A stretch of 45,069 nt of DNA from Syntrophales bacterium (GTDB taxonomy: Bacteria > Desulfobacterota > Syntrophia > Syntrophales > UBA2251), in contig JALNWL010000002.1 of the NCBI GenBank assembly GCA_023230905.1, positions 1 to 45,069 of the forward strand, in the 5' to 3' direction. Under the pieces are notes generated by a model. That model was not told the DNA's origin. It did not search any database and saw only the letters and a list, made by a program, of their open reading frames with translations. Numbering within the stretch: the stretch's first letter is position 1; the number at the start of each line of letters is the position of its first letter. Below are positions 6,588 to 36,047 of the stretch, one piece after another. Position numbers and translations under genes: made by a program.

Positions 6588-8117
6588 CTAAATCAGCGCG
6601 CGATCAAGGGTCCGATAGTGGATGGCCTCGGCGACGTGGGGTGACCGGATGTCCGCTTCGCTCTCGAGGTCGGCGATGGTCCGGGCGACCTTGAGGATGC
6701 GCGTGTAGGCCCGGGCGGAGAGCCCCAGGCGGTCGACGGCCATCTCCAGGAGGCGCTGCGACTCGGTGTCGAGGGCGCAGAATGCCTTCAGTTGCGGGTC
6801 GGTCAGGCGGGTGTTCGTGAAGAGGGGATGATCGGGGAGGCGCTCCCGCTGGCACCGGCGGGCCGCCTCGATCCGCGCCTTGATGGCGGCGGAGGGCTCG
6901 GCCGTTTGGCGGGCCGCCAGCTCCCGGTACCGGACGGCGGGGACGTCGATGTGGATATCGATCCGGTCGAGCAGGGGCCCGGAGATCCGCCCCTGGTACT
7001 GGCGGATCTGCCGCGGGCTGCACCGGCACGCCCGTCGGGGATCCCCGTAGAATCCGCAGGCGCAGGGGTTCATGGCTGCGATCAGCATGAAGCGGGCGGG
7101 ATAGGTCGTCCGCATCAGAGAACGGCTGATCGTGACCGTCCCGTCTTCCAGGGGCTGGCGCAGCGACTCGAGGGTGTTCTTCCGAAACTCCGGAAGCTCG
7201 TCGAGAAAAAGCACCCCTTGGTGGGCGAGGCTGATCTCCCCCGGGTGGGGAACGTGCCCGCCGCCGACCATCCCGGCATCGGAGATGCTGTGGTGCGGGG
7301 CGCGAAACGGCCGGGTCGCCAGAAAGGCCTGCTTCCGGTCCAGAAGGCCCGCGACGGAATAGATCTTCGTGGTTTCAACGGCCTCGGGGAACGTCAGGTC
7401 GGGGAGAATGGTCGGCAGCCGCTGGGCGAGCATCGTCTTTCCGGCCCCCGGTGGACCGATCATCAACACGTTATGCGAGCCCGCCGCCGCCACTTCCAAG
7501 GCACGCTTGGCCTGCTCCTGACCTCTGATATCCTTGAAGTCGAAGGGGTATCGGTGGCTCTGGCTGAAGACGGCCGCCGCGTCGACGACCACCGGTTCGA
7601 TCGCCCTGCGGCCGGAGAGAAACTCGACCACCTCGGCCAGATTCCCCACGGGCATGACCCCGACATCCTGAACCATGGCGGCTTCACGGGCGTTTTCAAC
7701 GGGGACGATGATGCCTTTTTTCCCCGAGGCCCGCGCCTGGAAGGCGGCGGAGAGAACACCGGGCACGCCCTTGACCGATCCGTCCAGGGACAGTTCTCCC
7801 AGTAGGAGATAGTCCTGCGCCGGTTGAGGCCCTAGGGTCCCATCGGCGGCCAGAATGCCCACGGCCATCGGCAGGTCGAATCCCGTCCCCTCCTTCTTGA
7901 TGTCGGCCGGGGCCAGGTTGACCGTCACGTGGGTCTTCGGGAACGGGTAGCCCGAATTCTTGATGGCCGCCTTGATGCGGTCCTTGCTTTCCCGGACCGC
8001 CACGTCGGGCAGGCCTACGGTGGAGAACTGGGGCAGGCCGGGAGAAATGTCCACCTCGACGGCCACGGGGTAAGCGTCCACGCCGATGATGGCGCTGCTG
8101 AAGACCTTGACGATCAA
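6588..8117 (-). CDS. comM: YifB/ComM family Mg-chelatase-like AAA+ ATPase
   Basis: N-terminal Lon-protease-like domain, Walker A GPPGAGKT, and a ChlI-like C-terminus. TTG start at 8117 is preceded by AGGAGG with a 7-nt spacer; the longest ORF reaches 8156. Confidence 0.9.
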   Translation of the reverse strand: MIVKVFSSAIIGVDAYPVAVEVDISPGLPQFSTVGLPDVAVRESKDRIKAAIKNSGYPFPKTHVTVNLAPADIKKEGTGFDLPMAVGILAADGTLGPQPAQDYLLLGELSLDGSVKGVPGVLSAAFQARASGKKGIIVPVENAREAAMVQDVGVMPVGNLAEVVEFLSGRRAIEPVVVDAAAVFSQSHRYPFDFKDIRGQEQAKRALEVAAAGSHNVLMIGPPGAGKTMLAQRLPTILPDLTFPEAVETTKIYSVAGLLDRKQAFLATRPFRAPHHSISDAGMVGGGHVPHPGEISLAHQGVLFLDELPEFRKNTLESLRQPLEDGTVTISRSLMRTTYPARFMLIAAMNPCACGFYGDPRRACRCSPRQIRQYQGRISGPLLDRIDIHIDVPAVRYRELAARQTAEPSAAIKARIEAARRCQRERLPDHPLFTNTRLTDPQLKAFCALDTESQRLLEMAVDRLGLSARAYTRILKVARTIADLESEADIRSPHVAEAIHYRTLDRALI

Positions 8118-22042: not shown

Positions 22043-22900
22043 TCAGGTCCGCGTGGCGCTGTCCGGTTCGTCCGCCGGAGGCGCCACCACCCCCTCCCCC
22101 TCTGGAGGAGTTGTCGGGAGTGCCGTCTCGGTTTCGGTGGCGACGGTTTCCGGTGTCATCCCCGGGGTCGCTTCCGGAGGAACAGGTGGGGGCGCAGGCG
22201 GTTCCTCCTCCGCTTCCGGCGGGGCAGGCGGCGGTTCCAGCGTTGCTATCCAGAGGGGATGGCGGCGCCGGGCGTAGTCCAGACGCACGGTTCCCGTGAA
22301 GATCCCCCGGATCATCGGCCAGTTCGGACGCAGCAGCAGCGCCCCGATGTGTGCGACGAAGGCCAGGATGAACAGGACGAAGAAGGCGTTGTGCAGCCAC
22401 GTTGCCCAGAGGACGAGCGTATAGTCGAGGTCGGGCGCGAAGACGTTCTTGTAGGTCTTGACCAGGCCGGAGAGGATCAGAACGGCGATGATCACGGCCA
22501 TCCCGAGGTAGGCGAGGCGCTGTTCGGGGAGGTATTTCCCGAAGGGCGGCTCCTCCCCCTTGCCGAAGAAGGTTTTGATCACGGCGATGGAGGCGCGCAA
22601 ATCACCTTTTTTCGGCATAAGCCCGGCCTCGCCCCGGAGGGCGTGGTAGGCCAGGTGAAAGCACGCGGCGGCGATGAAGATCACCGAGGCGGTGTAGTGG
22701 ACGTAGATCGAGGTGATGAAATCCCCCGACCAGGCGAGGCCGGGAAGGGTGGTGATCCGGTAGCGCGCGGCCATCGGGAGTTCGAACATCCCCGACAAAA
22801 GGAGGACGAGCCCGGAGAGTGCGATCGCCCAGTGCTCGGCCATTTCGAGTCCGGAGTGCCGGACCACGCGGTTTTCCGCTTCACGGATATCCTGGGACAT
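22043..22900 (-). CDS. cytochrome b subunit (FdnI / Ni-hydrogenase cytochrome b family) with a Pro-rich C-terminal tail
   Basis: Four TM helices with conserved His residues (HWAIALS, YVHYT, FHLAYH, WLHNAFF...FVAHIG), followed by a 70-aa Pro/Glu/Thr-rich tail. Confidence 0.75.
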   Translation of the reverse strand: MSQDIREAENRVVRHSGLEMAEHWAIALSGLVLLLSGMFELPMAARYRITTLPGLAWSGDFITSIYVHYTASVIFIAAACFHLAYHALRGEAGLMPKKGDLRASIAVIKTFFGKGEEPPFGKYLPEQRLAYLGMAVIIAVLILSGLVKTYKNVFAPDLDYTLVLWATWLHNAFFVLFILAFVAHIGALLLRPNWPMIRGIFTGTVRLDYARRRHPLWIATLEPPPAPPEAEEEPPAPPPVPPEATPGMTPETVATETETALPTTPPEGEGVVAPPADEPDSATRT

Positions 22901-22903
22901 GGC

Positions 22904-23899
22904 CTATTCCTCCTTTCCCGATCGGTCTTTGCGTCTGGAGATCGCGGCGAAGACCCCGACGATACCCGCCGCCACGCCCAAGGCCGGGGCCGCGAGGACG
23001 ACCTTGCCCAGGCCGTCCGAGCCCGCCATGCGCCGTGCAACCGGCTGAAGGTGGGGTCGGCCGGGACCGGTCTGAACGGCGGCGTTCAGGTCGGCGAAGG
23101 GCACGGGGGAAATGTAGAGGGTCGAGGTGCCGCCGTTTTCCTCCTTGCCGTAAAGGTGGCCCCCGATCCGTTTCGCCAGCGCCTCCGCCCGGGCGAAAAT
23201 CTCCTCCCGCGGCCCGATGGCCATGGCCTGCCTTGGACAGGCCGCGATGCAGGCCGGTGTCTTCCCCGCTTCGATAAGGTCATTGCAGAGATCGCATTTG
23301 TACATAACCCCGTTTCCCATCAGCGTCGGCAGGACCTTGAGATAGATCCCGATCCCGGATTGTCGCTGCGGGATCTCCCAGGGGCAGACCGTCTTGCACT
23401 TGGCGCCGCCGAAGCAGGTATCCTGGTCGATGACGACCGCTCCGTTTTCGAACTTGTGGTTGGAGGAAAAGGGGCAAAGCGTGGCACAGGCCGGGTTGTC
23501 GCAGTGCATGCACCGCCGCGGGATGAACACCGTCGTCTTCCGTCCGCCCGTATCCACTTCCGCCTTCTGGATGTAAATGAGGTTGTACGGCGTGAGACGG
23601 TCCGACACCGCCTGTCGCTTGGACCAGTCCTCGACCTTGCGCGTCGGAAAGGGAACGGGGATCGGATCCACGGGCGGCGGGACAACGCCGGCCTTGGCCG
23701 TCTTGCAGGCGGAAACGCAGGCCGCGACGTCCCGCCCGTCGCAGCCGTTGCAACGGGTCAGGTCGATAAGCGTCGCGAGCCTTCCCCGGCCGGCCATCGC
23801 CTCGCGGGGCGTTCCCAGCGCGCTCGCCGCGCCGATCAGGGCCGCTCCACCCGTGGCCGTGAGAAAGCCCCGCCGGTTGAGTTTCAAGGATGCCTTCAT
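22904..23899 (-). CDS. Tat-exported 4x[4Fe-4S] protein (FdnH/HybA-like) with a C-terminal membrane anchor
   Basis: Twin-arginine signal (NRRGFLTATGGAALIGAASALG), four Cys clusters (CNGC...C, CMHCDNPAC..CP, CFGGAKC..CP, CDLC...C..CP), and a C-terminal TM helix. Confidence 0.8.
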   Translation of the reverse strand: MKASLKLNRRGFLTATGGAALIGAASALGTPREAMAGRGRLATLIDLTRCNGCDGRDVAACVSACKTAKAGVVPPPVDPIPVPFPTRKVEDWSKRQAVSDRLTPYNLIYIQKAEVDTGGRKTTVFIPRRCMHCDNPACATLCPFSSNHKFENGAVVIDQDTCFGGAKCKTVCPWEIPQRQSGIGIYLKVLPTLMGNGVMYKCDLCNDLIEAGKTPACIAACPRQAMAIGPREEIFARAEALAKRIGGHLYGKEENGGTSTLYISPVPFADLNAAVQTGPGRPHLQPVARRMAGSDGLGKVVLAAPALGVAAGIVGVFAAISRRKDRSGKEE

Positions 23900-24699: not shown

Positions 24700-26370
24700 A
24701 TGGGAACTTCGGAAAAACCATCCGTCCCCGAGCGGCTCCGGCCGATCCGGGACATCGCGTCCACCATCGGTCTTCGGGAAGAGGATCTGGAATATTACGG
24801 CCGCTACAAGGCGAAGGTCCGCCTCGAGGCGATCCGGCGCTTTCCTCGCCGGGACGATTCGAACCTGATCCTCGTCTCGGCCATGACGCCCACACCCGCG
24901 GGCGAAGGCAAGACAACGGTGTCGATCGGCCTCGCGCAGGCTTTGGCCCGGTTGGGGAAGTCCACGATCGCGGCGCTCCGGGAGCCGTCGCTGGGGCCGG
25001 TGTTCGGCATCAAGGGGGGGGCGACCGGCGGCGGCCTGTCCCGCGTCCTGCCCGTGGACGACATCAACCTCCACTTCACCAACGACTTCCCGGCGGTGGA
25101 AAGCGCGCACAACCTCCTGTCGGCCCTCGTGGACAACGCCGTCTTCCACGGCAATCCCTTAAACATAGACCCCCGAAAGATCACCTGGCGCCGCGTGGTC
25201 GACATGAACGACCGGTCGCTCAGGGACATCGTGATCGGCCTCGGGGGATCGACGAACGGCGTTCCCCGCGAGACGGGGTTCGACATCGTCCCGTCGAGCG
25301 AAATCATGGCCATCCTCTGCCTGTCGAGGTCCTATGCGGAATTGAAGGACAAGATCCGCAAGATTCTGGTGGGCTTCACCTATGACGACAAGCCCGTCAT
25401 CGCGGGCGACCTCAAGGTCGAAGGCGCGGTCACGGCCCTACTGAAGTACGCCCTGCTTCCCAACCTGGTGCAGACGACGGAAGGGGTGCCGGCCATCATT
25501 CATGGCGGGCCCTTCGCCAACATCGCCCAGGGGACCAACAGCGTCATGGGCACCGATCTCGCGCTCCGCCTGGCGGATTACGTGGTGACGGAAGCGGGCT
25601 TCGGCTTCGACTTGGGCGCGGAGAAGTTCTTCGACATCGTGGCGCCCTACGGCGAACTCAACCCCCGGATCGTCGTCCTGGTGGCCACGGTGCGCGCCCT
25701 CAAGTACCACGCCGGCGTGGCCCGCGAGGACCTGAACGCACCGAATGCCCGGGCGGCGGTCCTGGGCATGGCGAATTTGAGGAAGCATTACGGAAATATC
25801 GACAAATTCAACGTCCCCTGCATCATCGCCCTGAACCGGTTTCCGTCCGACACGGACGAGGAGGTCCGGGCGGTGGTGGACGCCGCGGAGCGCGAGGGGA
25901 TGAATATCGCGCCGGCGGACATCTTCCGGCTGGGCGGCGAGGGCGGCCTGGATCTCGCGGAAAAGACGGTCCGGCTCATCGCAGGCGCGACCGGGACGTT
26001 CCGCACCCTGTATGACTGGGAGCAGCCGGTGGAGGACAAGATCTTCACGATTGCCAGTGAGATCTACGGCGCGGTGTCCATCGACTACCGGCCGCTGGCC
26101 AAGCGTAACCTGGACCTCATCCGCAGGTTCGGCTTTGACAAACTGCCCGTCTGCATCGCCAAGACCCAGCAGTCCCTGTCGGACAATCCGAGTCTCCTCG
26201 GCATGCCGCGGGACTTCATTGTCACCGTGCGGGAAATCAAGATCGCCTCCGGGGCGGGGTTCCTGATCCCCATCACCGGTGAGATCCTGCGCATGCCGGG
26301 CCTGTCGAAATCGCCGGCCGCGTACCACATCGATATTGACGACGCCGGAACTATTTCGGGGATCGTCTAG
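24700..26370 (+). CDS. fhs: formate--tetrahydrofolate ligase
   Basis: 556 aa with [20 protein letters not shown] and ICVAKTQ-like ([12 protein letters not shown]) motifs. Confidence 0.95.
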
Positions 26371-26423
26371 GCATTCCCCCAGCCCCGCCGGGCTTATCGT
26401 CGGCGGACCACAGGAGGCGGACG

Positions 26424-26891
26424 ATGGCGAAGCTCAACGTCGGTGACGCGGCCCCGGCCTTTTCCCTTAGGGATGCGGCGGACATCGTGGTGAAACGGTC
26501 GGACTTCAAGGGACGGAAGCTTCTCGTCTATTTCTATCCCAAAGCCGGGACCTCCGGGTGAACGAAGCAGGCCGAGGCCGTGCGGGACGCACGGGCCGAA
26601 CTCGACGCCCTGGGAGCCGGCGCCGTGGGGATCAGTCCCGATTCCGTCGCGGCGCAGAAGACGTTCAGCGACAGGCTGAAGCTGAGTTTTCCCCTCCTGT
26701 CCGACCCGGACCACGCCGTGGCGGAGGACTATGGCGTCTGGCAGGAGAAATCCCTTTACGGCAAGACGTATTTCGGAATCGTCCGCTCGGCCTTTTTGAT
26801 CGATGCCGACGGGAAGATCCTCGCGGTTTGGTACAAGATCAGCCCGGCCGATACGGTCCCGAAGGTCCTGGCGGCCTTGAGGTCGGGATGA
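26424..26891 (+). CDS. bcp: peroxiredoxin Bcp with in-frame UGA (predicted selenocysteine) at the peroxidatic position
   Basis: AGGAGG lies 6 nt before ATG 26424. The translation is collinear with E. coli Bcp: [13 protein letters not shown]-[TGA 26559-26561]-TKQAEAVRD against [23 protein letters not shown]. The frame continues into track ORF 26580..26891. Confidence 0.8.
26576..26597 (+). other. candidate bacterial SECIS hairpin
   Basis: GGCCGTGCG-GGA-CGCACGGGCC: a 9-bp stem with one bulged G and a G-starting apical loop. The loop lies 23 nt after the UGA. Confidence 0.5.
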
Positions 26892-26941
26892 GCGGTTCGA
26901 AGGGCTGATCCCCGAACTGAACGAAAAATGAATGAAAATTG

Positions 26942-26970
26942 TTGACAAGAAAAAGGATTTTATTTAGCGT
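26942..26970 (+). promoter_or_regulatory. sigma-70-type promoter candidate (TTGACA-17 bp-TAGCGT) with an AT-rich upstream tract
   Basis: Perfect -35 in a locally AT-rich patch; weak -10. Confidence 0.3.
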
Positions 26971-27139
26971 GACAGCCATCGGACGTCGGAGGGAGCACTT
27001 CCGGTCGCCGTCCGGTCGGGCGGCGCGTTTCCAAGCCATGGATGGCGGAGCCGCCGGGGGGGGCGAGAGAGGGAGGAGGCACCCGCCTGCACGGTTCCCG
27101 GGTTCAGAGGCTATTGACTGAAAACCAGGTAAAAACGTG

Positions 27140-29617
27140 ATGAAAAAAACGAAGGTCTTTCGGACCGATGTGTTTATCGGTGTCATTCTCACCCTGTTGA
27201 TCCTCGGTGTGTATGCCCTCCGCTGGTCGCCGGTCGAGTTTCTGGAATACAAATTCTACGATCTGGGGATCAACCTCCGGGAGGGGCCGACCGCCTCGCC
27301 GGTCGTCGTCGTTGCCATCGACGACAGCAGCATCAACGCCCTGGGTCGCTGGCCGTGGCCGCGGAGCCATATCGCCCGGATGATTGACCTTCTCCAAGGA
27401 TACGGCGCCAAGGTCATCGGCCTCAATATCCTGTATTCCGAACGGGACACAAACCGGGGATTGCAGGCCATCCGGGATGTCACTGCCTCCATCGAGGCGA
27501 AGCCGGGGCTGCAGAGCAGTGCATCGGTCGCGGAAATCTACGCCACGCTGAAGACGGCCGAGAAAAACCTGGACCATGACGCGGCGCTGAGCACGGCGAT
27601 CGCGGCTTCCCAGCGGGTCGTTCTGCCCTTTTTCTTCGTTCTCGGCGGTCCCGTCCTGATGGACAGCGCCGGCATGGCCGAGGCGCTCGCGCGCAACTCC
27701 GTTTCTTTTGCCAGTCCGCCCGACTTGGTGACGGCCCGGGAACTCATCCCGCCCGTTCCCGAATTTTCAGACCCGGCACTGGCCCTGGGACACATCAACC
27801 TCGCCGCTGACAGCGACGGCGCCGTGCGAAACGATTGCCTCCTGATCGACTACGGCGGCCGGGTCTTCCCTTCTCTGAGCCTCCAGCTGTCCCTCGAGTA
27901 CCTCGGGTATGATCTGAAAGATATGGTGATCGGCGAAGCGCTCACGTTTCGGAGGATCCGCATCCCGATCCACGAACAGGGTCGGATGCTCATCAGCTAC
28001 AGCGGCAGTTATGAGGCCTATCCCTTCGTCGAGGTCCTCAACAACCGCGTGGCGCCCGAATCGTTCCGCAACAAGATCGTCATCATCGCCCCGACGGCGA
28101 CGGGTCTGGGGACGATGCAGGTGACGCCCATCGGTACGACCATGCCCTCCGTGCTCATCACCGCGAACGCCATCAGCAACATCCTGAACAACGACCATAT
28201 CGTCCGTCCCGGTTGGGCGACGCTGCTGGAGATCGGCATTCTGATCCTGTTCGGTTTGTTCCTGGCCTTGGGGATCCCCCATCTGAAGGCGGGAATCAGC
28301 GCCCTCATCTCGTCCGTCCTGCTCGTGGCCTGGCTGGTGACGGCGGCCTATTTCATGCTGGCGGAGGGGATTTGGCTCAAGGTCTTCTATCCGACGCTGC
28401 TTCTGCTCGTGGGATACACGATCGTCGTTTCACGGGGATACCTCTTCACGGAGAAATCGAAGGAGCGGATCGAGGCGGACAGCGTGGAGACGAACAAGAT
28501 GCTCGGACTCTCCTTCCAAGGGCAGGGCATGCTGGACATGGCTTTTGAAAAGTTCCGCAAATGTCCCGTGGAGGATGAGGCCGTCAAGGAACTGCTCTAC
28601 AACCTCGGTCTGGATTTCGAGCGGAAACGGATGTTCAACAAGGCGGTAGCCGTGTACGAACACGTGGTAACGGCCGGGAGCTTCAAGGACATCGAGGAGC
28701 GGATCAAGAAACTCAAGGCCGTGGGCGATACGGTGATCTTCGGCGCGGGCGGTGCCCGGAAGGATACCACGGTCATCGTGGAAAACGCCCAGACCCGTCC
28801 GACCCTGGGCCGTTACGAGATCATGAAGGAACTCGGCCGCGGGGCCATGGGGACCGTGTATCTCGGAAAGGATCCCAAGATCAACCGGGAAGTGGCCATC
28901 AAGACCCTGCGCTACGAGGAGTTCGACGAGGAACAGCTCGCCGACATCAAGTCGCGGTTTTTCCGGGAGGCGGAGGCCGCCGGCAAGCTGGCCCACCCGA
29001 ACATCGTCACCATCTACGACGTGGGCGAGGATTACGAGATCGCCTACATGGCCATGGAGCTGCTGGACGGCGCGGATCTGGCCAAGAACTGCCAGAAGGA
29101 TCAACTCCTGCCCCGGGCTGAAGTCGTCCGCATCATCTCCTCCGTGGCCGGCGCGCTCGATTACGCCCATGCCAGCGGAATCGTGCATCGGGATATCAAA
29201 CCGGCGAACATCATGATCCTGAACAACGGGGAAATCAAGGTGGCGGATTTCGGTATTGCGCGGGTCATGGCGAGTTCCAAGACGCAAACCGGCGTCATCA
29301 TGGGGACGCCAAGCTACATGTCGCCGGAGCAGATCGCGGGCCAGAAGGTGGACGGCGCCTCCGACCTCTTTTCCCTGGGGGTTGTGTTTTTTGAGCTTCT
29401 CACGGGCGAGAAACCGTTTGCCGGCGACAGCATCGCCACCCTCATCTTCAACATCACGACGACGCCGCCGCCGTCGGTGCGAGAGATGGCTCCGGATTTG
29501 CCGGAGCAGTTCGAAACGATCATCGGCAAGCTCCTCGCAAAGGACAAGTCGCAGCGTTATCAGCACGGGAAGGAGTTGGTCGATGATCTTCAGGAACTGA
29601 TGAAGGTCGTCTCATGA
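27140..29617 (+). CDS. CHASE2-sensor transmembrane Ser/Thr protein kinase
   Basis: N-terminal TM helix, a periplasmic CHASE2-like domain (GRWPWPRS), a TM block, a TPR-like linker, then a Hanks kinase domain (GRGAMGTVY, AIK, HRDIKPANI, DFG, SPEQ). Confidence 0.85.
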   Translation: MKKTKVFRTDVFIGVILTLLILGVYALRWSPVEFLEYKFYDLGINLREGPTASPVVVVAIDDSSINALGRWPWPRSHIARMIDLLQGYGAKVIGLNILYSERDTNRGLQAIRDVTASIEAKPGLQSSASVAEIYATLKTAEKNLDHDAALSTAIAASQRVVLPFFFVLGGPVLMDSAGMAEALARNSVSFASPPDLVTARELIPPVPEFSDPALALGHINLAADSDGAVRNDCLLIDYGGRVFPSLSLQLSLEYLGYDLKDMVIGEALTFRRIRIPIHEQGRMLISYSGSYEAYPFVEVLNNRVAPESFRNKIVIIAPTATGLGTMQVTPIGTTMPSVLITANAISNILNNDHIVRPGWATLLEIGILILFGLFLALGIPHLKAGISALISSVLLVAWLVTAAYFMLAEGIWLKVFYPTLLLLVGYTIVVSRGYLFTEKSKERIEADSVETNKMLGLSFQGQGMLDMAFEKFRKCPVEDEAVKELLYNLGLDFERKRMFNKAVAVYEHVVTAGSFKDIEERIKKLKAVGDTVIFGAGGARKDTTVIVENAQTRPTLGRYEIMKELGRGAMGTVYLGKDPKINREVAIKTLRYEEFDEEQLADIKSRFFREAEAAGKLAHPNIVTIYDVGEDYEIAYMAMELLDGADLAKNCQKDQLLPRAEVVRIISSVAGALDYAHASGIVHRDIKPANIMILNNGEIKVADFGIARVMASSKTQTGVIMGTPSYMSPEQIAGQKVDGASDLFSLGVVFFELLTGEKPFAGDSIATLIFNITTTPPPSVREMAPDLPEQFETIIGKLLAKDKSQRYQHGKELVDDLQELMKVVS

Positions 29618-30429
29618 AGGTATTTGAGCTGCGCGCCGCCGGGCAAACGGATGTCGGGCGGGTTCGGGCGAACAACGAGGACGCCTTTTGCCTCCTGCCG
29701 GAACAGGGGCTGCTGGCGGTGGCGGACGGCATGGGCGGGCACGCCTCGGGCGAGGTGGCGAGCAAGATGTCCATGGATCTGATCCGGGGCTATTTCGCCG
29801 ACGCGGGTACGGGGCCGTCCCCCCAGGTCGGGGACTACGACGAGGATCGTTCCGAGTTGACCAACCGGCTCGGTTCGGCGGTTCGTCTGGCCAATATGGC
29901 CGTCTACGAAGCCTCCGAGAGCAATGCCCAGTGGCAGGGCATGGGAACGACCGTCGTGGCCGCGCTGATCCGGAAAAACAAGCTCAGCATTGCCCATGTC
30001 GGAGACAGCCGGCTGTATCTCATCCGGTACGGGAACATTGAGCAGCTGACCGACGATCACTCCGTGGTGGCCGAACAGGTCAAGCGGGACCTGATCACCC
30101 GCGAGGAAGCGGATCGATCGGAAATCAAGAATATCCTGACCCGGGCCCTCGGGACCGAAGCCGATGTCGAGGTGGATCTGGAGGAGATGACCCTCCTGGC
30201 CGACGATGTCCTGGTCCTTTGTTCCGACGGCCTGAGCAACATGGTTTCGGATGACGACATTTTGACGATTGTCCTTTCCACCCGCGATCCGGCACTTGCC
30301 TGCCAGACGTTGGTGAAGATCGCCAATGAGAACGGCGGCAGGGACAATATCACCGTTGTCGTGGCTTATCTGGCCAACACCGGTTGGCTTGCATCATTCA
30401 TCAATTTCTTCAGGGGGCGCAGGAGGTGA
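29614..30429 (+). CDS. PP2C-family Ser/Thr phosphatase (Stp-like)
   Basis: GRVRANNEDAF, VADGMGGH, CSDGL and GRDNITVV motifs. ATGA overlap with the kinase gene. Confidence 0.9.
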   Translation: MKVFELRAAGQTDVGRVRANNEDAFCLLPEQGLLAVADGMGGHASGEVASKMSMDLIRGYFADAGTGPSPQVGDYDEDRSELTNRLGSAVRLANMAVYEASESNAQWQGMGTTVVAALIRKNKLSIAHVGDSRLYLIRYGNIEQLTDDHSVVAEQVKRDLITREEADRSEIKNILTRALGTEADVEVDLEEMTLLADDVLVLCSDGLSNMVSDDDILTIVLSTRDPALACQTLVKIANENGGRDNITVVVAYLANTGWLASFINFFRGRRR

Positions 30430-30432
30430 AGC

Positions 30433-31131
30433 ATGGCGAAGATCCAGGTCAAGTTTAAGGATGCCGTCATCAAGGAGGTGCCATTGACGCAGGACATCCT
30501 GACCATCGGCAGGAAAGAAGGAAATGACCTCGTGATCGACAATCAGGCCGTTTCCGGATCCCATGCCCGGATCGTGAAAGAGGAACAGGATTTCAGCGTC
30601 GAGGATCTCAACAGCCTCAACGGGACCTTCATCAACGGGAAAAAGGTGTCCAAATATATCCTGAACAACGGGGATGTCATCCTGATCGGTAACCACACGC
30701 TGGAGTACTTTTCCGAAAAGCCGGGAGAGGACCAGGTCAAGAAACCGGCGCTCCGGGGCCATTCGATGGACGAAACGATGGTGCTGTCGCCCACCGAGCA
30801 GAAGAAGATCCTGGTGTCGACGGAAAAGCTCGACGTGCTGGGGGGCTTTCTCATCGTGCAGGGGGTGACGGAGAAGAAGGATTATCTCCTGAAGGACCGG
30901 ATCACCACGATCGGCAAGGACGACGGGGCCCTGATCAAGCTCAAGGGGTTTTTCGCCCCGAAGGTGGCCGCCCTCGTGAACCGTCGAAAGGACGGGTATT
31001 TCATCAATCCTTCGGGCGGCAAGGACCTGAAGGTGAACGGCAAGAAGGTCGAGCAGCGCTGTGATCTCAAGGATGGAGACATGGTGGAGGTCGGCGATCT
31101 CAAGATGCAGTTCTATCTTAAGGAGTCGTGA
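30433..31131 (+). CDS. protein with two FHA domains
   Basis: First FHA: ILTIGR...VSGSHARI...NSLNGTFINGKKV. Second, more divergent FHA: TTIGKDD...VNGKKV. The RBS AGGAGG lies inside the PP2C gene end. Confidence 0.85.
   Translation: MAKIQVKFKDAVIKEVPLTQDILTIGRKEGNDLVIDNQAVSGSHARIVKEEQDFSVEDLNSLNGTFINGKKVSKYILNNGDVILIGNHTLEYFSEKPGEDQVKKPALRGHSMDETMVLSPTEQKKILVSTEKLDVLGGFLIVQGVTEKKDYLLKDRITTIGKDDGALIKLKGFFAPKVAALVNRRKDGYFINPSGGKDLKVNGKKVEQRCDLKDGDMVEVGDLKMQFYLKES

Positions 31132-35021: not shown

Positions 35022-36047
<1,026 letters not shown>

Follow-up and report, generated by a model that had tools for sequence, protein, structure and literature searches.

Peroxiredoxins (Prx) that use selenocysteine (Sec) as the peroxidatic residue make up an established family of selenoproteins. 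A Prx family with a TxxU motif ranked second in abundance among the selenoprotein families of the Sargasso Sea set, with 43 sequences falling in COG1225 (PMC1088965). A bacterial survey of 2006 reported twelve Sec-Prx genes, including those of Syntrophus, Syntrophobacter, Geobacter and Anaeromyxobacter, counted five Cys-to-Sec events and no Sec-to-Cys event in the Prx family, and credited Syntrophus aciditrophicus with SelD and 19 selenoproteins, one of them a peroxiredoxin (PMC1794560). A review of 2026 lists Sec-Prx as a verified family with the domain PF00578, and gives PxxxTxxU as its motif (PMC13188914). The Bcp proteins of Escherichia coli and Xanthomonas campestris (PrxQ subfamily; PDB 3gkk, 5iiz and others) are atypical 2-Cys enzymes, with a peroxidatic Cys and a resolving Cys at position +5 from it. 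We take COG1225 to be the Bcp-type COG. PrxU of Eubacterium (Peptoclostridium) acidaminophilum is reportedly an experimentally verified, thioredoxin-dependent Sec-peroxiredoxin. As to the decoding signal, the archetypal bacterial SECIS element, that of E. coli fdhF, lies inside the ORF just past the UGA and has a small apical loop starting with G (GGUC) and a bulged stem nucleotide. The published bSECIS model specifies a loop of 3-9 nt with a G within its first two positions, an upper stem of 4-16 bp, a UGA-loop spacing of 16-37 nt and a minimum free energy (MFE) of -7.5 kcal/mol or lower (PMC13188914).

The locus studied here lies on the forward strand of a 45,069-nt stretch of DNA, which we call the window and which has a GC content of about 63%. 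A Shine-Dalgarno sequence AGGAGG (26412-26417), read directly from the sequence, is followed after a 6-nt spacer by an ATG at 26424, from which a reading frame runs for 45 codons to a TGA at 26559-26561; another 109 codons follow in frame before the TGA stop at 26889-26891. The full coding sequence (CDS), 26424-26891, thus has 155 sense codons including the internal UGA, the putative codon for Sec46, and its GC content at the three codon positions (0.62/0.46/0.81) is typical for the genes of the window. The upstream neighbor on the same strand is fhs, encoding formate-tetrahydrofolate ligase (24700-26370, Pfam FTHFS in public gene calls), which ends 53 nt ahead of the bcp start codon. The closest homolog of the encoded protein, P0001 (81% identity), is a Cys form that is likewise found directly after fhs, and it has a TGT at the UGA column.

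We scored the joined protein with Cys written for the internal TGA in the profile searches. It matches Pfam AhpC-TSA (PF00578) with an E-value of 1.7e-33 and 115.6 bits against a cut-off of 26, and the Bcp/thiol-peroxidase equivalog model NF006960 with 162.9 bits against a cut-off of 140, with residues 1-153 aligned to positions 1-153 of the 156 model positions. Solved Bcp structures match at up to 8.5e-28, with the catalytic residues Pro39, Thr43 and Arg121 aligned. The active-site motif P39-K-A-G-T43-S-G-U46 (26538-26561) corresponds to the PxxxTxxC of the Cys homologs and of the solved Bcp structures, U46 standing in place of the Cys, and the codon of the conserved catalytic Arg121 (26784-26786, in GIVRSAF) aligns with the Arg of GIERSTF in 5enu and 5iph. 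Moreover, Cys sits at the UGA column in all full-length homologs, in the context GTSGCT or GTPGCT. The residue at +5 from the UGA is Glu51 and the translated 155-residue protein is without any Cys, so that it lacks the resolving Cys, a feature that defines the atypical 2-Cys subtype and not the family; the closest Syntrophus-type Cys homologs have Glu at +5 too. In our reading, 26424-26891 is very probably a single gene for a Bcp/PrxQ-type peroxiredoxin whose peroxidatic residue is Sec, specified by the UGA at 26559-26561.

Most of what the original prediction had said about this gene stands. The AGGAGG-N6-ATG start, the 45 codons before the TGA and the 109-codon continuation agree with our re-reading at each coordinate, and translation confirms Glu at the resolving-Cys position. 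Collinearity with E. coli Bcp is borne out by the full-length match to NF006960, and the alignment with Cys-containing Bcp homologs, proposed there as a check, places the TGA on the peroxidatic Cys. On the other hand, PrxU of E. acidaminophilum, cited there as an example, turns out to be an unsuitable precedent: although its peroxidatic residue is also Sec, its Prx subfamily is another one, the window protein scoring 50.7 bits against a cut-off of 270 with the PrxU model NF040737, a profile of 233 positions to be compared with a protein of 155 residues. The relevant precedent is the COG1225/TxxU Prx family.

To see how widely this arrangement occurs, we scanned the GTDB species representatives with the degenerate pattern [FY][FY]PK[AD]xTxG-TGA-T. 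A TGA at the peroxidatic codon was found in at least 120 GTDB species, whereas about 4 are expected by an estimate from the information content of the pattern. The matches listed come from Acidobacteriota, Planctomycetota, Poribacteria, Chloroflexota, Acidimicrobiia, deltaproteobacterial lineages and others, and nearly all of them have about 100-113 open codons past the TGA; the species of the window itself is absent among the matches listed. Several Candidatus Poribacteria loci, namely, L037 (TGA at 383 and 836), L071 (pattern matches at 6867 and 7320), L042 and L050, contain two Bcp domains in one frame with a TGA at each peroxidatic codon, 453 nt apart, and thus look like tandem double-Sec peroxiredoxins. 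A Sec-Bcp homolog in a Planctomycetota MAG (L028) has 362 open codons past the UGA, and so would extend far past the peroxiredoxin domain at its C-terminus.

Just past the internal UGA of the window gene, folding yields a hairpin at 26576-26597, as the original prediction had it, with a loop starting with G 23 nt past the UGA. It consists of a lower stem of 4 bp (26576-26579 with 26594-26597), a one-nt bulge (26593), an upper stem of 5 bp (26580-26584 with 26588-26592) and the loop GGA (26585-26587), and its free energy is -14.7 kcal/mol. These values agree with every one of the published bSECIS criteria (PMC13188914). Taken alone, the stability of the hairpin in the window sequence is not significant (fold z-scores +1.1 and -1.3), and 14% of the synonymous-codon shuffles of the gene yield a model-compliant hairpin that is equally or more stable. 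At 63% GC such stability in a single sequence is unremarkable, and part of the hairpin follows from coding A-V-R-D-A-R-A in a GC-rich genome; therefore, our argument rests on comparative data. A search of Rfam, at gathering thresholds as well as in permissive mode, returned no SECIS or other match to the hairpin.

Among 20 distinct TGA-bearing relatives, 97.8% of hairpin cells pair. At the eight inner pairs every change keeps pairing, three of these pairs varying only to wobble, while at the outermost pair three double changes from G:C to A:U occur and 4 of the 20 relatives lack pairing. We also computed the mean pairwise diversity at the four-fold degenerate sites of the gene in the TGA-bearing clade; it is 0.17 inside the hairpin and 0.57 at the 26 other such sites (Mann-Whitney p=0.001), and the pattern used to collect orthologs (see below) had left the four-fold sites of the hairpin free. 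As judged from these patterns of substitution, the hairpin in the predicted Sec forms is constrained at the RNA level. We compared it with four distinct Cys-form sequences as well. Two of them, P0009 (S. gentianae) and P0002, use other synonymous codons for A-V-R-D-A and have no hairpin; in P0001 (L002, 8136-8200) the hairpin is identical in nucleotide sequence, with 9 of 9 pairs, and P0003 (L157) keeps 8 of the 9. Hence, the hairpin is not confined to Sec forms; where a Cys form has it, it is either a relic or a pre-adaptation.

A similar signal is seen across the 115 Sec-Bcp genes (loci L013-L132) for which we collected structure statistics. Within the gene, structure is strongest in the 42-nt segment following the UGA, which has a mean z of -0.96 relative to synonymous-codon shuffles, compared with -0.1 to -0.4 for five control segments, and model-compliant hairpins (-7.5 kcal/mol or lower) are found in 61% of the genes versus 22% of the shuffles. 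The hairpins include two classes: one with a GUU triloop 17 nt past the UGA (41 of the 115 genes, e.g. GCGUGCGG-GUU-CCGCGACGC), and one with loops on Arg-Asp codons 21-23 nt past the UGA (31 of the 115, including the window gene). A minority of the genes have no model-compliant hairpin. Aligning 11 hairpins in the same register displays many compensatory pairs, an illustration only, since these sequences were chosen for having a hairpin.

The most likely reading, and one in which we have high confidence, is that Sec46 is inserted as the peroxidatic residue under the direction of SelB and a SECIS element. SelB with Sec-tRNA(Sec) would be recruited by the hairpin at 26576-26597 during translation, and Sec would be inserted at the UGA in place of termination, while the second TGA at 26889, without such a hairpin, would terminate. 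The Sec46 selenolate, activated by Thr43 and Arg121, would then reduce the hydroperoxide and be converted to selenenic acid. Since the protein has no Cys and has Glu at +5, recycling would presumably follow the intermolecular route of 1-Cys PrxQ enzymes, with thioredoxin, glutaredoxin or a small thiol as the partner in a selenenyl-sulfide. The earlier proposal that the UGA is read as Sec finds support in the Cys column of the homologs, the retention of the TGA, the constraint on the downstream frame (see below), the fit to the bSECIS model and the constraint at the RNA level.

The UGA might instead be read through with another outcome, i.e., with Trp or Cys inserted by a near-cognate or suppressor tRNA, or with Cys inserted by the Sec machinery under selenium limitation, in which case the enzyme would be Cys-bearing or inactive. 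The inserted residue cannot be told from sequence alone, and our search for selA, selB, selD and tRNA-Sec within the 45-kb window found none of them. In addition, the public homologs P0012 and P0014 have Trp where Sec is expected, reading GTSGWTKQTEAVRDA and GTSGWAKQTEAVRDA. However, these calls are most likely, and most simply, explained by a gene caller switching to translation table 4 or 25 and translating TGA as Trp, so that some Sec-Bcp genes are hidden as 'W' proteins in the catalogues. Of the 34 genes of the window, 18 end in TGA, which makes it the commonest ordinary stop there; thus, the code is the standard one and has not been reassigned. Furthermore, an enzyme with Trp as its peroxidatic residue would be catalytically dead, which does not fit the purifying selection seen on the protein, and SelB recruitment is the sole known explanation for a conserved, model-compliant hairpin at SECIS distance with suppressed synonymous change. 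We therefore consider such non-Sec read-through very unlikely.

The Sec reading also presupposes that the TGA is real and the frame behind it functional, whereas a recently inactivated pseudogene, in which a TGT or TGC turned into a TGA that truncates Bcp at 45 residues, would have a decaying downstream frame. A single substitution would indeed turn the TGT of the nearest Cys ortholog into the TGA, and a further nonsense codon, private to the window, lies in mdh (malate/lactate dehydrogenase, about 35108-36046, + strand): an in-frame TAG at 35661-35663, where L007, L008 and L012, three other assemblies of the same population, have TAT (Tyr). Either the strain has a nonsense mutation of its own in mdh, or the TAG is an error of assembly or sequence; with at least one private nonsense codon, the window assembly is not flawless. 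The TGA of bcp, in contrast, is present in at least 24 independent assemblies from different digester metagenomes. The exact 103-aa fragment encoded behind it is on record in 40 index blocks, and all of the 24 contigs that we read show the same 45+103 split. The six loci compared with the window show 99.6-99.98% identity to it, and in a variant with 8 differences over 404 bases (L001) the TGA is still present. The recurrence of the split in these assemblies, together with this variant, argues that the TGA is not a sequencing error. L001, the only close variant, has four changes on each side of the TGA; none of those upstream and three of those downstream are non-synonymous, as might be expected of a decaying frame, but all three replacements (R, T, D) go towards the family consensus.

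We further scanned the JGI metagenomes with a subfamily-specific degenerate pattern containing the TGA. The 22 contigs returned gave 17 distinct full-length orthologs that keep the TGA at 62-87% amino acid identity, and 109 open codons follow the TGA in all 18 contigs that are not ended early by the contig end. For the 17 orthologs, mean pN downstream of the TGA is 0.156 and mean pS 0.619, which is near saturation, and the median dN/dS is 0.165 downstream, indistinguishable from the 0.151 upstream, which indicates purifying selection on the 109 downstream codons. Truncated orthologs lacking a conserved downstream frame, which the original prediction had raised as an observation that would count against it, were not seen among these 18 contigs. 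As both the stop and the constrained frame behind it have been kept across such wide divergence, and as at least 120 species share this arrangement, the pseudogene explanation is largely refuted, and we regard it as highly improbable.

In every public assembly examined, the gene has been called as two fragments of 45 and 103 aa, so that ORF splitting hides it, as the original prediction had proposed. Taken at face value, this output of the automatic callers would mean two products, a 45-aa peptide ending at the UGA and a 103-aa protein starting from the GTG at 26580, which is a possible start codon. Neither fragment, however, amounts to a full thioredoxin fold, and the longer one lacks the entire PxxxTxxC active site. 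There is no Shine-Dalgarno sequence ahead of 26580, the six codons from the TGA to the GTG are conserved as protein, and the GTG itself is the codon of the conserved Val53 and lies inside the hairpin; two separate products are thus extremely improbable. The 184-aa antisense ORF (26394-26948, - strand) does exist as noted earlier and is the longest uninterrupted ORF at the locus, but public callers report the two sense fragments and not this ORF, which the original prediction had expected from a naive caller, and with no Pfam match, a codon-position GC content (0.76/0.48/0.60) unlike that of the window genes, sense-strand Bcp matches from 1e-33 to 1e-48, and shadow ORFs being common in DNA of 63% GC, we judge it a non-gene, the chance that it is the real gene and the Bcp similarity irrelevant being negligible.

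Returning to the Sec reading of bcp, the CTP synthase of the window is essentially identical to one recorded for a 'Syntrophales bacterium' (HPB69838.1), followed by Syntrophus spp. at 84%, so that the organism is a Syntrophales bacterium, and the SelD and 19 selenoproteins reported for S. aciditrophicus (PMC1794560) would be indirect support for a Sec machinery in its genome. The source samples of the matching assemblies are anaerobic digesters, and the window contains housekeeping and beta-oxidation genes, with no tRNA of any kind and no other evident selenoprotein within it. A GC3-based scan of the window for further in-frame TGAs, a crude procedure, gave antisense shadow frames only and was dropped. 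Directly downstream of bcp on the + strand lies a signalling cluster (27137-31131) encoding a CHASE2-domain Ser/Thr protein kinase (826 aa), a PP2C phosphatase and an FHA-domain protein, with an AT-rich stretch (26920-26965) between the bcp stop and the kinase start. Elsewhere, at 22043-23899 on the - strand, genes for a 4Fe-4S (Fer4_11) subunit and a cytochrome b (Ni_hydr_CYTB) membrane subunit stand side by side, with no room adjacent for a catalytic molybdopterin or hydrogenase subunit, and this arrangement is kept in the related genome L002.

In a crude neighbor-joining tree without support values, Sec and Cys forms are interleaved in the Cys-free subclade with Glu at +5. The nearest Sec form among the GTDB matches listed has 56% identity to the window protein, while Cys forms reach 81%. 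Together with the hairpins kept in P0001 and P0003, these observations suggest that repeated and recent switching between Sec and Cys may have taken place in the subclade. A more specific scenario, which we put forward tentatively and consider somewhat less than an even bet, is that the subclade is a wholly Cys-free '1-Sec' lineage with repeated recent Sec/Cys switches, in which the hairpins of P0001 and P0003 would point to Sec-to-Cys reversion. If true, this would be the direction for which the 2006 survey had no record in the Prx family (PMC1794560), and such pairs would be naturally matched Sec and Cys enzymes for testing the benefit of selenium to a peroxiredoxin in strict anaerobes. Sec/Cys exchange can conveniently be studied, irrespective of its direction, in the close natural pairs of Sec and Cys orthologs that have a common hairpin.

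The main value of these results is practical, namely the correction of annotations, and general knowledge of selenoproteins is left unchanged. Sec-Bcp selenoproteins are an abundant family that is systematically lost or garbled in metagenome protein catalogues. With the corrected gene, situated right behind fhs, the Syntrophales of anaerobic digesters would gain a selenium-dependent peroxide defence.

In comparison with known systems, the window protein is collinear with the Bcp of E. coli and X. campestris over 153 residues and shares their catalytic Pro, Thr and Arg, but has Sec (predicted) and Glu where these enzymes have the peroxidatic and the resolving Cys, and no other Cys. Its hairpin resembles the fdhF SECIS in lying inside the ORF just past the UGA, in its small loop starting with G and in its bulged stem nucleotide, while the loop (GGA rather than GGUC), the sequence and the stem differ; it is a predicted SECIS. 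With the Sec-Prx family described by Zhang, Gladyshev and co-workers (PMC1088965, PMC1794560, PMC13188914) it has in common the domain PF00578, the motif PxxxTxxU, a peroxidatic Sec (here predicted) and a SECIS (here putative) within the CDS just past the UGA; that family likewise has widespread Cys homologs, and occurs in Deltaproteobacteria including S. aciditrophicus and Syntrophobacter fumaroxidans. Within the Sec-Bcp, the subclade of the window gene is Cys-free and has Glu at +5, a position at which many Sec-Bcp keep a Cys, and the hairpin of the gene is centred on Arg-Asp codons at 23 nt, whereas the commoner type has a GUU loop at 17 nt. Nothing essential separates the window gene from the known Sec-Prx family, and it is an unannotated addition to a selenoprotein family catalogued in 2005-2006.
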